This document shows positions 14,682-18,732 of a stretch of 64,000 nucleotides of DNA, piece after piece. Both the position numbers and the translations under genes were made by a program. The notes under the pieces were generated by a model that had not been told where the DNA came from, searched no databases, and was given only the letters and a program-made list of their open reading frames with translations. Numbering within the stretch: the stretch's first letter is position 1; each line of letters opens with the position of its first letter. The stretch spans positions 1,792,001 through 1,856,000 of the forward strand of contig CP147779.1 in the NCBI GenBank assembly GCA_037308085.1, read 5' to 3'. Source of the DNA: Promethearchaeati archaeon SRVP18_Atabeyarchaeia-1. Lineage in GTDB: Archaea; Asgardarchaeota; Atabeyarchaeia; Atabeyarchaeales; Atabeyarchaeaceae.

Positions 14682-15019
14682 CAAGATGCTAACGCCTCTG
14701 CAGCGCAGGTGAACTCGAATGCGCATAATCGTATGGCTCAGAAGGGTGGCTTGCTCACCGATTCTGTATCCTTGATCGCTTATATTGCTTTGTTGGGATC
14801 GAGTGCAGAGAGTCATGGCTAGATGATCCCGCAAGCAGGTGCGCTTGGCAACGTGAAGGGCTTGAAAGACCGCACCAAACAGCCGAGAATCGCAAGACCA
14901 CGGGCTTTGGCAGAGGGTAGATGGCATCCTAAGCTTCGACTGATGACTGGCGTCGGCCAGCTACGCCTTCCACCTTAGGACCATACCGGCCTTGAGCTTG
15001 ATATGATCATGCTTGCCAA

Positions 15020-16039
15020 TCAGAATGTTGAGAAACCAATTCGCATCTGGTCCATAATTGCCCCCTTTTGCTCCTGAAGTATTCTATCAACATTCTCGCG
15101 AGTAACTGCTTTCGTTGTGCCGACGTCCGTCACACAGGCAGCCCCAGCGGCCTGCCCTTCAAGCAGGAGGTCCAGCAACTCCTTTCTGGTCAGAGCGGCT
15201 ACGTCGATCTTTCCCAGTTTGTCCGCTTTCCTAGTCAGGTAGAAAACTACCCCTGCAGAGAATGCGGCTCCAGCACCCATCGGATCAACGACAGGAACCT
15301 TGAAAGCCGGCATGGCGACCCTATCATAGGCGTGCTTGGCGACCAACCCCTCATTGCCCAAGGTGATTATCGGGAGTTTTACCCCTCGATTGGCGATGGC
15401 GTTGAGTGCTTCAGTTGACTTGTGCTTACCTGTCATGCTTTCCGCTTCTGTACCGTTACAGTGCAGCACATCAATCCATTCAGAGGCTCGTGCAAGGAAC
15501 TCCCACCCATGTCCCTGCGGCTGGATTGGGTCAACGACGGTCACACAGTCGAGTTCCTCCTTGACCTCCCTTAGGATCCGAGGAAGCTGCTCGTCAAACA
15601 GTCCGAGGGATCCAGTTGCACCAATGTAGAATACGCAGGGTCTCTCCCTTCTCAGCAAATCTCTCACTTTGAGTGGCTCAAGGAGCGTGTTTGCCCCAAT
15701 ATCGAAATGAAATTTGCGGGCTTCACCTTCGGCGGATATTGTCGTGGCTGACCCAGTCGGAGTCTTCTCGACCTTCTCCACGTGTGTGACCACGCCATTC
15801 TTCTCCAATTCCTTGATGATGAAATCGCCGAGATCGTCCTGTCCCACTGCACCCGAGCAGCTGACTTCACCTTTTGCCAGACCCAACTTCAGCAGGTCAA
15901 TTGAGACGTTGGCCGCATGCCCGCCAGCAGAAAACCTTTCTCCAGACAGCGCGGATGTTGCCTCCCCTGGGGCAGCGGCTTCGAGCTGACCGCTAGCAGT
16001 AATGTCGACAACCAGCATACCCGTACAGGTAACGAGCAA
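15020..16039 (-). CDS. PfkB family carbohydrate kinase-like protein (catalytic Asp replaced by Ala)
   Basis: GGHAANV, GAVGQDDLG, NGTEA, ITLGNEG, DPMGAGAAF (canonical GAGD). Confidence 0.8.
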   Translation of the reverse strand: MLVTCTGMLVVDITASGQLEAAAPGEATSALSGERFSAGGHAANVSIDLLKLGLAKGEVSCSGAVGQDDLGDFIIKELEKNGVVTHVEKVEKTPTGSATTISAEGEARKFHFDIGANTLLEPLKVRDLLRRERPCVFYIGATGSLGLFDEQLPRILREVKEELDCVTVVDPIQPQGHGWEFLARASEWIDVLHCNGTEAESMTGKHKSTEALNAIANRGVKLPIITLGNEGLVAKHAYDRVAMPAFKVPVVDPMGAGAAFSAGVVFYLTRKADKLGKIDVAALTRKELLDLLLEGQAAGAACVTDVGTTKAVTRENVDRILQEQKGAIMDQMRIGFSTF

Positions 16040-16094
16040 AATGGATAGTACTCCTCTGCAGCTCGTGCTTCTGAAATGAGATATGGTCTCATGA

Positions 16095-16260
16095 TATTTG
16101 AAAGGATGGTACGGGGTTCTGTTAACTCTTGGGGTGATGAGTTAACTGGGTAGCATCGACTCCGAGGATTACCTGTTCCTTCCGCTCCTCAGGGTTCCCC
16201 TTCACCGCTTCACCTGCCGCTCCCTTCAGGCTGAACCGCAGCCCTGCGCCGACGATATTC
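16095..16260 (-). ncRNA. Putative omegaRNA overlapping the tnpB 3' end, with the guide from flanking DNA
   Basis: GC-rich tail after RuvC-III; terminal hairpin GTTAACTC-N10-GAGTTAAC; position matches known TnpB omegaRNA loci; boundaries approximate. Confidence 0.5.
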
Positions 16261-17377
16261 AGAGCCCCATTCTCATCCCTGTCCACGAGCCTCCTGCAGC
16301 GTGGGCAGTAGACCTTCCTCCCTGCGCATTCGACTATCTTGGAGCCACATATCGCGCAGATTGAGGAAGTCTTGGATGGATTAACGTAAAATACTGGGAT
16401 ACCATCCCAGCGTGCCTTGTACTCTATTTGCCGCTGCAGCTCGGCGTAGCTCCAGCTGTTCATCCTTGCCCTGTAGTCCTTGCCCTGCCAGTTTCCCTTC
16501 CTGTAGAGTTTGCGGATGCCTCTGATGTCCTCCATGACTATGCCGAACTGCCTTTCCTTCGCCTCCTTCACTATGCTTGCTGAAGTGTTGTGCAGTATCC
16601 AGTTTACCTTGCTCCTCTGGATTCTTCCGTATTTGGAGTAGAGCTGCTTCCTGACGCGGCAATCGCTTCTTCTGAGGCCTCGCTTCGCCTGCCTACAGTT
16701 CTCCTTGATCTCGGTCGCCCTCGACAGGTCATACCTCCTCATATCTCCAGCCGAGGATGCAGTGGTTACATTGTCGAGGTTGCGGTCTACCCCGACTAGC
16801 CCCACAGGCTCAACCTGAGCAACCTCCTTCGTGAAGGCCAGTGACACGGCGGAGGCGGTCAAGCAGACTGAACGCACAGCACACCCCTCAACAGACTGCA
16901 GCGAGTAGGCGTTCAGCGGGAGGTAAACGTACTCTCTTGCCCTGATGGGCAGCCTGAGCTTGCCCTTGATTATCCTGAAGCCGTAGCAGTCGGTGAGCAT
17001 GAGCCTTGTTGCGCAGGGCTTCTTCACCCCCTCCCGCTTCCTCAGCGCCTGCCTGTAGTTTCGGAGGATGCCCGCGGCCTTGCTGATCGCGGTTAAGCGG
17101 TAGTAGGCTGGCACATCAAATCCTGCGAGTTGATGGTATGCCTTCTTTGAGAGCGCCTTCATCGAGGTGACATTCTCAGCTACACCAATCCTTAAGCAAT
17201 CGTTCACCATCTTTCTGAACGCATCCAAAAGGTTGAGTAGCTCTGGAGACGGCGTATAGTTCTGCTTCACCGCTTTGACCGCTTGCATACCCGAAAATGG
17301 GGTACTTCGGCTAATAAAGCCACCATACGGCCGAGAAGCCTCCAACTCCAACTTTCACCCGAAGAGTTAACAGAGCT
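16115..17377 (-). mobile_element. Non-autonomous TnpB-only element with IS6-like terminal inverted repeats and an 8-bp target-site duplication
   Basis: Left end GGTTCTGTTAACTCTTGGGGTGA (16115-16137) vs reverse complement of 17355-17377 AGCTCTGTTAACTCTTCGGGTGA; flanks TGGTACGG (16107-16114) and TGGTTCGG (17378-17385). Confidence 0.75.
16122..17288 (-). CDS. tnpB: RNA-guided endonuclease TnpB
   Basis: RuvC-I GVDRN, RuvC-II VMEDI, zinc finger CAICG/CPRC, RuvC-III DRDENGALNI; start probably MQAVKAVKQ at 17288. Confidence 0.92.
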   Translation of the reverse strand: MQAVKAVKQNYTPSPELLNLLDAFRKMVNDCLRIGVAENVTSMKALSKKAYHQLAGFDVPAYYRLTAISKAAGILRNYRQALRKREGVKKPCATRLMLTDCYGFRIIKGKLRLPIRAREYVYLPLNAYSLQSVEGCAVRSVCLTASAVSLAFTKEVAQVEPVGLVGVDRNLDNVTTASSAGDMRRYDLSRATEIKENCRQAKRGLRRSDCRVRKQLYSKYGRIQRSKVNWILHNTSASIVKEAKERQFGIVMEDIRGIRKLYRKGNWQGKDYRARMNSWSYAELQRQIEYKARWDGIPVFYVNPSKTSSICAICGSKIVECAGRKVYCPRCRRLVDRDENGALNIVGAGLRFSLKGAAGEAVKGNPEERKEQVILGVDATQLTHHPKS

Positions 17378-17478
17378 TGGTTCGGCAAGATTTAAATACG
17401 AGGACTCGTAATTTACACGCGAGAATACGACTACTCGTAATATTCCAGGACGTGGATCTTCCCAAAACTTGGAAAGAG

Positions 17479-18258
17479 ATGGTGAAGTTGGCCGAAGGGC
17501 AGGTTACTGATGTGGTTGAGGAATACCTAGAGACAATCTACAGGCTCCAAATGAGGGAAGGTGACGGGGCTAAGACAAATGACATCGTCAGAACAATGAA
17601 GGTCGTTCCAGGAACCGTCACAAATACGGTGGAGCGACTGGAGAAAGAAGGCTTTGTAGAACACGAGCCCTATAAAGGCGTTAAGCTGACAGAGAAAGGA
17701 CGCAAGATCGCGCTGCAAGTCGTCAGAAGGCATCGCCTATCCGAGAGACTGCTCACAGACATTCTCCACGTTAACTGGGGGAAGGCTCACGATATAGCAT
17801 GCAAGATTGAACATGACATCGCTGACGAGGAGGTCATGGAAAGGATTGAGGAGGCATTGGGTAATCCTAAGACGTGCCCTCATGGAAATCCTATCCCCTC
17901 TGAAGACGGAGAGTCCACAGATGACGAATCCAGTGTGAAACGGTCTAGGTCTCTCTGGGATCTTCAAGTCTCAGACTTGGGCGTCATAACGAACATCGCT
18001 GACGAAGATAGCGAGGTTCTGAGGTACCTTTCTGATTTCGGGCTGATGCCTGGCATGAACGTGGAAGTGATCAAGAAAGATCCCGCGGAACACACTATGA
18101 TTGTGCGGCTGGCTGGCTCCGCCATGCACACGATTACCGAAAAGGTGGCTTCATCCATCCGCGTCAGAGGGGCAGAGCGACTCAATAGAGCCGATATTCT
18201 GAACCGCCGCACTCACTCTGTCGGCAAAGGATCGACGTTTGGTGAATACGAAAGCTGA
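17479..18258 (+). CDS. DtxR/MntR family metal-dependent regulator with C-terminal FeoA-like domain
   Basis: EEYLETIY, HEPYKGVKLTEKG, RRHRLSERLL, ACKIEH, CPHGNPIP; TATA-like TTTAAATA near 17391. Confidence 0.92.
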   Translation: MVKLAEGQVTDVVEEYLETIYRLQMREGDGAKTNDIVRTMKVVPGTVTNTVERLEKEGFVEHEPYKGVKLTEKGRKIALQVVRRHRLSERLLTDILHVNWGKAHDIACKIEHDIADEEVMERIEEALGNPKTCPHGNPIPSEDGESTDDESSVKRSRSLWDLQVSDLGVITNIADEDSEVLRYLSDFGLMPGMNVEVIKKDPAEHTMIVRLAGSAMHTITEKVASSIRVRGAERLNRADILNRRTHSVGKGSTFGEYES

Positions 18259-18282
18259 GAAATGCTGGGCAGTTGAGCCATA

Positions 18283-18732
18283 ATGCAGAGAACAGAGAGA
18301 TACCTGACCGAGCTAATGGAAGGAGAGGCAGGGATCGTAGTGGATGTCGAAACAGAGAACTGCCCTGAAAGAGGCAAAAAAGGAGCGCGCAGTGGCGTGA
18401 GCTGCGTGGCCGGCTGTGCCTCGAGGTGGGGTGCAGTTCAAAGGCTCTCGGAATTAGGCTTGACTCTTGGAACGGAGGTCACCATGACGAGTTCTGCTCC
18501 CCTCAATGGATCTCTTGAGGTATCCGCCAGAGGACGTAAGATAGTACTCGGAAATGAGTTGGCCTCACGGATCGTAGTCACGGAAACCAATCGTGATGAG
18601 CGCCCGAGTCGGAAAAACTCGAATGAAATAGCTAGCAAGAAAGGCGTTCAAAGGCGAAACCAAAATAGGTTGCCTCACACGAGAGCCGTGCAAAAAGAAA
18701 TAGAAGAGTACAGAGGGATACGTCTTGACTAA
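18283..18732 (+). CDS. feoA: Ferrous iron transport protein A
   Basis: RLSELGLTLGTEV...APLNG.LEV..RG.KIVLG...A..I.V. Confidence 0.75.
   Translation: MQRTERYLTELMEGEAGIVVDVETENCPERGKKGARSGVSCVAGCASRWGAVQRLSELGLTLGTEVTMTSSAPLNGSLEVSARGRKIVLGNELASRIVVTETNRDERPSRKNSNEIASKKGVQRRNQNRLPHTRAVQKEIEEYRGIRLD

Follow-up and report, generated by a model that had tools for sequence, protein, structure and literature searches.

A tnpB gene between IS6-family-type terminal inverted repeats in an Asgard archaeon of the Atabeyarchaeia lineage

We analysed a 64-kb window (the whole stretch of DNA under study, C1:1792001-1856000) of the closed 2.81-Mb genome of Promethearchaeati archaeon SRVP18_Atabeyarchaeia-1, and describe in it a 1,263-bp element (window 16115-17377) whose gene content is tnpB, encoding an RNA-guided nuclease. 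The element is bounded by 23-bp terminal inverted repeats (TIRs) that are identical at 20/23 positions: the IS6-like right-end repeat on the tnpB 3' side, GGTTCTGTTAACTCTTGGGGTGA (16115-16137), and the left-end repeat on the tnpB 5' side (17355-17377; reverse complement AGCTCTGTTAACTCTTCGGGTGA), in which the 2-3 bases at the very tip differ among copies. An inverted-repeat search (20 nt, 95%) returned these TIRs as the sole long inverted repeat of the region, and their core occurs exactly twice in the window, against 0.01 occurrences expected. Outside them lie the two copies of an 8-bp target-site duplication (TSD), TGGTACGG on the tnpB 3' side (16107-16114) and TGGTTCGG on the tnpB 5' side (17378-17385), which match at 7/8; random pairs of 8-mers match at 7/8 or better with a probability of ~5e-4. 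The limits of the element are also fixed independently, by the homology of two full paralogues, which begins and ends at the TIR tips. A first-pass annotation, made from the letters of this stretch, had proposed these repeats and this duplication, and both stand; its guess of an Asgard host was likewise right, the organism being an Asgard archaeon of the Atabeyarchaeia lineage.

The tnpB gene lies on the minus strand and is the only substantial gene in the element. Its longest frame spans 16122-17351, with a TTG start at 17351; the start MQA.KAV is conserved in both clades of elements described below, which makes the ATG at 17288 the likely start of a 388-aa protein (MQAVK..., 16122-17288). 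The TAA stop (16122-16124) falls inside the right TIR, 7 nt exactly from the element end in every copy. Just inside the left end, ~24-30 nt 5' of the ATG, is a TATA-like box, TTTATTA (17312-17318, minus strand), and TTTAAAT or TTTATAT occupies the equivalent place in the clade A copies and miniature elements described below; from its sequence and position this box is a candidate archaeal promoter. The protein scored 68.8 bits against PF07282 (cut-off 26.3) and 117.8 bits against the NCBIfam model guided_TnpB (cut-off 100), and it matches solved TnpB and Cas12f structures (PDB). It has the features that define a TnpB nuclease of an OMEGA system (for obligate mobile element-guided activity), with a complete RuvC D/E/D triad in the motifs GVD189RN, VME274DI and DRD359ENG (P0001 numbering) and an intact CxxC...CxxC zinc finger in the zinc-ribbon TNB domain, in agreement with the earlier description of a sole gene with intact catalytic residues. 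The gene is under purifying selection, with dN/dS of 0.12-0.25 for the window copy against its paralogues and orthologues and of 0.12-0.27 over all copies compared.

A genome-wide scan for the TIRs returned ~24 TIR-bounded units, of which 15 (15/24) have a TSD matching at 7-8/8. The window element belongs to a family of ~1,260 bp, here called clade B, which the genome holds in three full copies and, with an internal deletion, one derivative of 966 bp; two full paralogues, 85-87% identical to the window copy, are flanked by the perfect 8-bp duplications ATAGCATT and TGGAGCTC. Clade A comprises elements of ~1,292 bp (ten copies, namely C1:54026-55316 and nine further ones, plus one deletion derivative), and its TnpB is ~40% identical to that of clade B. 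Additionally, the genome holds one 381-bp remnant and six non-coding miniature inverted-repeat transposable elements (MITEs) of 257-269 bp, at C1:868840-869096, 1260433-1260701, 1526452-1526708, 537694-537951, 673143-673403 and 2198749-2199010. The MITEs combine IS6-type TIRs, a TTTATAT box kept behind the left TIR and a clade-B-like RNA scaffold with no TnpB open reading frame (ORF), their longest frames being 58-87 aa. Two large units of 6,554 and 4,419 bp also have these TIRs with TSDs. Copies of like architecture, with TSDs at 7-8/8, occur in a relative from the same genus (G001) and another from the same family (G002), and further copies occur in metagenomes, so that the paired TIRs and 8-bp TSDs for which the first-pass annotation would have had one look elsewhere are present both within the genome and, outside it, in two relatives and metagenome sequences.

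The copies are 72-91% identical in pairwise comparison, and those within the genome have diverged as much as those between genera. Clade B copies within the genome differ by a dS of 0.32-0.47, and the TSDs are better kept than this would permit if all divergence had followed insertion; thus, much of the divergence probably predates the insertions. The 966-bp clade B derivative (C1:1254037-1255002) has a ~300-bp internal deletion that removed the 3' third of tnpB and left 50 nt of the right end, and no TSD is present in its flanks. Its deletion joint also occurs in contigs from two other wetland runs.

In a maximum-likelihood tree of 15 TIR-bearing and 29 TIR-less TnpBs, all of the TIR-bearing ones fall into a single group (support 93/95, a single change). 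This clade spans Asgard archaea, Bathyarchaeia, Nitrososphaerota and Thermoplasmata; its members from outside the phylum were collected by a right-end pattern scan and so were ascertained via the TIR itself. The 2.8-Mb genome has ~49 TNB-domain matches in all, and it also encodes three Y1 TnpAs and three serine-recombinase TnpAs, which adjoin TnpBs of other, TIR-less clades (for the serine recombinases, at 1.50 Mb and 1.97 Mb). Canonical pairs of the IS605 type (Y1 TnpA with TnpB) and the IS607 type (serine recombinase with TnpB) are found at C1:1573364-1575056, 1955413-1956875, 1499577-1501182 and 1969633-1971286. The window element falls outside the IS200/IS605 family (IS1341 group), given its 20/23 TIRs, the many copies with 8-bp TSDs and Y1 genes that stand beside other TnpB clades, and outside IS607, given its TIRs and TSD and serine recombinases that stand beside non-TIR TnpBs.

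An omegaRNA-like scaffold covers the tnpB 3' end up to the tip of the element (16115-16248, minus strand). RNAalifold, applied to a 13-sequence alignment (A1), predicted 28 base pairs, nine of them with compensatory changes. Across this structure 97.8% of alignment cells are paired and 33 cells have double changes, as against 10 in shuffled alignments; none of 500 shuffles (0/500) reached the observed scores, and the signal collapses when pairing partners are slid along the alignment. Furthermore, the last ~135 nt of clade B elements are retained in the non-coding MITEs. The scaffold ends in a terminal hairpin (minus strand; 5' arm 16139-16146, 3' arm 16121-16128) whose 3' arm is the TIR and whose 5' arm shifts with the TIR subtype, reading GTTAAC, GTTACC or GTCRAG for the AAC, ACC and CAAG subtypes. 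This covariation of hairpin and TIR is the strongest evidence that the site of the transposase and the scaffold of the RNA have co-evolved. The first-pass annotation had placed both the stop codon and the terminal hairpin inside one TIR; this is correct for the stop codon and for the 3' arm, and the 5' arm lies just inside the element instead. Its suggestion that the TIR doubles as the omegaRNA 3' end has fared well, as the conserved RNA ends in a covarying hairpin whose 3' arm is supplied by the TIR. Thus, the arrangement expected of OMEGA systems, a structured RNA over the gene 3' end that stops at the transposon end, is found here computationally by covariation, and a predicted omegaRNA that ends in the TIR is well supported by the same calculations.

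The place directly 3' of the scaffold and TIR end predicts a guide of ~20 nt, CCGTACCATCCTTTCAAATA on the tnpB strand (16095-16114, minus strand), the first 8 nt of which are the right-end TSD copy. No further perfect match to the 18-nt guide of the window element was found in the genome, where the guides have no second target, and none of the secondary targets at up to 3 mismatches was convincing; retargeting towards a regulatory role is thus not indicated.

On the opposite side, the host DNA that immediately precedes the TSD (5' of it) has a sequence resembling a target-adjacent motif (TAM), TCTTG (17386-17390, minus strand; core TTG at 17386-17388). A TAM ending in TCTTG had been proposed at first pass, and the motif generalises to WTG across 16 independent insertions. 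This strict set holds clade B and MITE insertions oriented by tnpB, from this genome, the two relatives and seven metagenome contigs; four insertions (M1526k, M537k, M763k and mg_L232) were excluded, since their TSD and TTG appear only after a shift of 1-2 nt. Base counts 5' of the left-end TSD are T13/A3 at -3, T16 at -2 and G15/A1 at -1, with TTG in 12/16 insertions (P = 4e-18) and TG in 15/16. Clade A has a different motif, YTTA, with TTA in 6/10 insertions (P = 1e-10). Guanine at -1 distinguishes the clades (15/16 clade B and MITE insertions vs 0/10 for clade A; Fisher P = 2e-6), also among elements with ACC-type TIRs only (5/5 in clade B vs 0/9 in clade A; P = 5e-4), and clade B elements all have WTG whether their TIRs are of the AAC, ACC or CAAG subtype. 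The mirrored side is almost devoid of the motif (TTG 1/14 and TTA 1/11 in a first-pass set of insertions), and no common flanking motif was found for transposase-bearing and cargo-only units with these TIRs. It is the TnpB/omegaRNA clade, and not the subtype of the TIR, that the flanking motif tracks.

Because the motif adjoins the outer edge of the TSD at the tnpB 5' end, an unoccupied site would consist of a TAM followed by the guide target, and this geometry strongly suggests that the guide targets the empty site. The TAM adjacency may arise through homing survivorship or through TAM-steered insertion. MITEs with a readable TSD likewise adjoin TTG; the MITEs as a group are candidates for elements that supply a guide only and would rely on TnpB made elsewhere, in trans. 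In clade A, RuvC-III reads DRH in place of DRD (NRH in one copy) and the second CxxC is absent; the gene is nonetheless under purifying selection (dN/dS 0.15-0.27) alongside its YTTA motif. Clade A may represent a TnpB that is rearranged, or dead as a nuclease, and for which recognition of the TAM is still required.

The element lies between genes for a PfkB kinase and a DtxR-family protein. These are syntenic in both relatives, where the element is absent and the genes are 220-276 bp apart, as against 1,449-1,535 bp here. The DtxR-family gene (Fe_dep_repress and FeoA; window ~17476-18258) is preceded by two copies of a palindromic box, AATACGAnnACTCGTAAT, at 17395-17412 and 17424-17441, and one copy of the box is kept in both relatives. 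The box is likely an operator of the DtxR-family metalloregulator, with the TnpB element inserted just upstream of it.

The footprint of TIRs and an 8-bp TSD is that of a DDE transposase making 8-bp staggered cuts, and no transposase is encoded in the element. Exactly two matches to PF13610 (DDE_Tnp_IS240) occur in the 2.81-Mb genome, at 65.4 and 63.7 bits (cut-off 27), each within one of the two large TIR/TSD units; the first-pass annotation had pointed to an IS6 transposase with the same ends, and these two genes fit that description. For both proteins the best NCBIfam model is, by a wide margin, IS6, over its full length (E = 6e-35 and 2e-33). The 6.5-kb unit (C1:549276-555829; L019:276-6829) has clade-B-type TIRs and an 8/8 TSD, TGGAGAAC, and encodes an IS6 transposase of 383 aa (C1:549896-551047) whose N-terminus is of the SWIM/zinc-ribbon kind, a 995-aa Eco57I/MmeI-like restriction-modification (R-M) protein of type IIG/IIL and three further ORFs without a Pfam match; judged by this content, it is a putative mobile R-M cassette. 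The 4.4-kb unit (C1:614149-618567; L020:249-4667) has a 7/8 TSD, TIRs identical to the clade A consensus and a 251-aa transposase, with cargo ORFs that are mostly unannotated (one weak DUF4325 match and one weak aspartyl-protease-like match). These are the only units in the genome-wide TIR scan with a transposase gene. Beyond ~24 bp of TIR, no sequence shared between the IS6 transposons and the TnpB elements was found, and among 80 genome-contig loci no unit encodes both tnpB and an IS6 transposase.

The same ends recur in other archaea. In Bathyarchaeia contigs they enclose homologous IS6 transposases, and in these other archaea they also bound a methyltransferase, a protein with a MEDS domain and uncharacterised ORFs. 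Thus, the ends appear to behave as general IS6-type vehicles, given that the same TIRs bound both IS6 transposases and unrelated cargo. Five contigs from Bathyarchaeia or Nitrososphaerales (L066, L077, L082, L090 and L111) contain units of 1.1-3.2 kb with perfect 8-bp TSDs and neither TnpB nor transposase; they carry a MEDS-domain regulator, an S-adenosylmethionine (SAM) methyltransferase or unknown ORFs, and resemble mobile insertion cassettes. The TIRs of the window family (GGTTCTGTTAAC...), together with TSDs at 7-8/8, have the form of IS6/IS26 family ends, which are short TIRs starting with GG and accompanied by an 8-bp TSD. It is likely, from these matching ends, that an IS6-type transposase moves the TnpB elements in trans.

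Taken together, we consider it probable that this is an OMEGA module of TnpB and omegaRNA, non-autonomous, set between IS6-family-type ends and mobilised in trans, with a guide that targets the empty allele. An IS6-type transposase would mobilise both TnpB elements and MITEs. Read-through transcription would then yield an omegaRNA whose guide consists of the TSD and the downstream flank (CCGTACCATCCTTTC...). An unoccupied allele would read WTG, the 8-mer and the right flank, and so offer a perfect TnpB target; at the occupied left junction 8 nt would match before the TIR intervenes. Cutting of empty alleles by TnpB would allow the element to be copied by homologous repair, as homing or as retention, and we propose that copies survive beside a TAM because such cutting would favour them.

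Reaching further, and with rather more doubt than belief, we propose that the whole archaeal TnpB clade may be an obligate passenger of a replicative, non-excising IS6-type DDE transposon. The last hairpin of its omegaRNA would be the TIR to which the transposase binds, and its guide would start with the TSD. Insertions would arise or last only at a clade-specific TAM (WTG or YTTA) abutting the 8-bp stagger, through a gene drive into empty alleles that needs no excision or through a TAM-steered transposase, and omegaRNA-only MITEs would parasitise the nuclease in trans.

Several observations weigh against the OMEGA module as set out here. IS6 elements such as IS26 move replicatively, without excision. 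The usual rationale for TnpB, restoring an element after its excision, is therefore inapplicable, and survivorship is left to account by itself for a TAM occupancy of nearly 100%, which asks a great deal of it. Clade A, with its DRH, still has a flanking motif, which is hard to fit with homing based purely on cleavage. All copies are old (72-91% identity), so that the elements may no longer be active. The two transposases score 120.7 and 116.1 against the NCBIfam IS6 model, 4-9 bits under the equivalog cut-off of 125, and the 251-aa protein lacks the N-terminal 126 aa of the 383-aa one. On the side of the RNA, its ends, processing and guide length are predicted, an Rfam scan of 15000-18500 at E <= 1 matched no family, and the scaffold folded as a single sequence is no more stable than shuffles (z = +0.54). 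Since this fold energy is unremarkable, it is covariation that carries the structure. Finally, the empty sites anticipated by the first-pass annotation were obtained as element-free synteny in the two relatives but not as a base-exact empty allele. In the relatives the spacer is too diverged for the exact 8-mer to be read; contigs from four wetland runs compared with 15300-18200 gave occupied junctions only, with no joint across the element (a 303-nt skip in them, from 16157 to 16461, matches the deleted paralogue described above); the exact joined-flank pattern had 0 matches in JGI metagenomes; and no paralogous uninterrupted insertion site was found in the genome itself. That the empty allele would collapse to one 8-mer is suggested by the TSD statistics.

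The alternative that survives best concerns how copies come to lie beside the motif. TnpB, with or without its omegaRNA, might bind WTG or YTTA and recruit or orient an IS6-type transpososome, in a guide-independent manner reminiscent of CRISPR-associated transposons (CASTs). Such TAM-steered insertion would fit a TAM occupancy that is near-complete, strictly one-sided and in fixed register with the 8-bp stagger, and a motif that goes with the TnpB clade and not with the TIR subtype. The persistence of the motif in clade A despite DRH is what would be expected if binding matters and cutting does not, whereas the complete D/E/D triad of clade B, kept under purifying selection, argues that cleavage matters. 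IS6-type elements are in general non-excising. This also favours steering, in that it weakens restorative homing (PMC13565253). However, contact between TnpB and a transposase has no precedent known to us, and the complex would have to form wholly in trans, as neither MITEs nor TnpB elements encode a transposase. With all copies old, insertion bias and survivorship are not separable, and we regard TAM-steered insertion as unlikely.

Weak target preferences are common among DDE transposases, so WTG and YTTA might be such a preference and unrelated to TnpB; the 4.4-kb transposase-bearing unit does have ATTA in one orientation. This seems to us very improbable, given that the motif is asymmetric (as its near-absence from the mirrored side indicates), separates the two clades even where both have ACC-type TIRs, and is the same in clade B across three TIR subtypes, and that cargo-only and transposase-bearing units share no motif. 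It is highly improbable that the elements are instead mobilised by another enzyme, from a different 8-bp-TSD DDE family or a casposase-like Cas1, with the IS6 transposons having merely similar ends. Trans-mobilisation by IS6 is itself deduced, and the transposases do score slightly below the IS6 equivalog cut-off; TnpBs linked to Cas1 and flanked by repeats have also been reported in Asgard archaea (PMC10691335). Nevertheless, the genome-wide TIR scan encountered transposase genes in the two IS6 units only, in Bathyarchaeia the same TIRs surround homologues of these IS6 transposases, and TIR tips reading GGTTCTGTT with an 8-bp TSD are typical of IS6 elements (IS257, IS431 and IS26), whereas casposon TSDs are ~14-15 bp. 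There is next to no chance that this is an ordinary IS200/IS605 (IS1341-type) or IS607 solo TnpB moved by a Y1 or serine TnpA with incidental repeats: three TnpAs of each type are present and the TnpB family models have IS200/IS605 in their names, but these TnpA genes stand next to TnpBs of other clades, IS6 transposases and unrelated cargo are found enclosed by the same TIRs, and the TSD/TIR statistics (7-8/8 in 15/24 units, and in relatives and metagenomes) effectively refute it.

The IS200/IS605 and IS607 families by definition lack TIRs and TSDs (PMC13565253 and PMC6188088), and the first-pass annotation named them as the classical carriers of TnpB. Taken as a rule for all prokaryotic TnpBs this premise is outdated, as Altae-Tran et al. 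(2023, PNAS; PMC10691335) describe six DDE-associated TnpB branches (DDE-1 to DDE-6) that have inverted terminal repeats, some of the TnpBs being solo genes between matching ends. A 2026 review names ISL2, IS630 and IS1031 as the DDE partners of TnpB, and ascribes the rarity of the association to restorative homing benefiting only elements that excise (PMC13565253). In current reviews TnpB benefits by restoring transposons that excise scarlessly, and the rarity of DDE partners is taken as support (PMC13565253). Our literature search turned up no report in which TnpB is connected with ends of the IS6 family, and a paper on Atabeyarchaeia mobile elements lists five IS-like transposons, with TnpB and inverted repeats unmentioned in its main text. 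TnpB in DDE/TIR transposons is thus not in itself new, and the IS6-type variant appears to be. Compared with the literature found, the apparent novelties are a replicative IS6 partner that would act strictly in trans, a putative TAM beyond an arbitrary 8-bp TSD that would make the TSD part of the guide, the covariation of TIR and hairpin, candidate omegaRNA-only MITEs and a clade-specific flanking motif.

These findings have implications beyond the locus. A TnpB clade that extends over four archaeal phyla and is tied to non-excising IS6-type ends offers a natural test of OMEGA systems as homing drives or as target-site selectors, and the clade-specific TAM predictions, WTG vs YTTA, are directly testable. 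The system is compact, with a 388-aa nuclease, a ~135-nt scaffold, a predicted 3-nt TAM and natural guide-only MITEs. Additionally, its host belongs to the archaeal lineage closest to eukaryotes, in which Fanzors likewise entered TIR transposons.

Among known systems, the DDE-associated branches (PMC10691335, compared here by their main-text description) are similar in having TnpB inside symmetrical inverted terminal repeats, with the tnpB 3' end at most 250 bp from the transposon end, and in having solo TnpBs whose ends are nearly identical to those of transposase-bearing relatives; the window element is in the same way a solo tnpB with the ends of transposase-bearing units. They differ in that IS630, ISL2 and IS1031 are named there and IS6 is not. 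Here, in contrast to those branches as described, tnpB and transposase share a unit in none of the loci examined, the 8-bp TSD is arbitrary with a TAM-like motif outside it, and omegaRNA-only MITEs appear to exist; the present clade may even so coincide with one of those branches. With IS200/IS605 solo TnpBs (IS1341, ISDra2-type) the element shares an intact RuvC and zinc finger, a predicted RNA scaffold over the gene 3' end to the right end, a predicted guide from the right flank, a putative TAM at the left-end flank and the empty or rejoined site as the presumed target. Those elements have subterminal hairpin ends and no TSD, whereas here there are TIRs, an 8-bp TSD and no linked Y1 TnpA, and the first 8 nt of the predicted guide are duplicated target sequence. 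As the presumed transposase is non-excising, homing here would act on naive empty alleles and not on excision products.

IS6/IS26 elements are alike in their TIRs starting GG(T)TCTG, their 8-bp TSDs, the DDE_Tnp_IS240 domain found in the partner units and the occurrence of transposase-less TIR passengers (MITEs and mobile insertion cassettes). What sets the present family apart is a passenger that is an RNA-guided nuclease, with an RNA structure that appears to have co-evolved with the TIR and a passenger-specific flanking motif, and presumed transposase partners that are extended at the N-terminus by a SWIM/zinc-ribbon region and come with large cargo, namely an R-M gene of type IIG. Fanzor systems offer a parallel, as they too are TnpB-family nucleases captured by DDE transposons, with an omegaRNA that ends in the TIR and a TSD at the guide junction. 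The window element does not belong with them, its host being archaeal and its conserved motif lying outside arbitrary TSDs. The 5' TSD of Fanzor elements contributes to the TAM and their 3' TSD to the scaffold (PMC13565253), whereas in this archaeal host, with a typical short TnpB, the arbitrary TSD would itself be guide and the TAM would lie beyond it.

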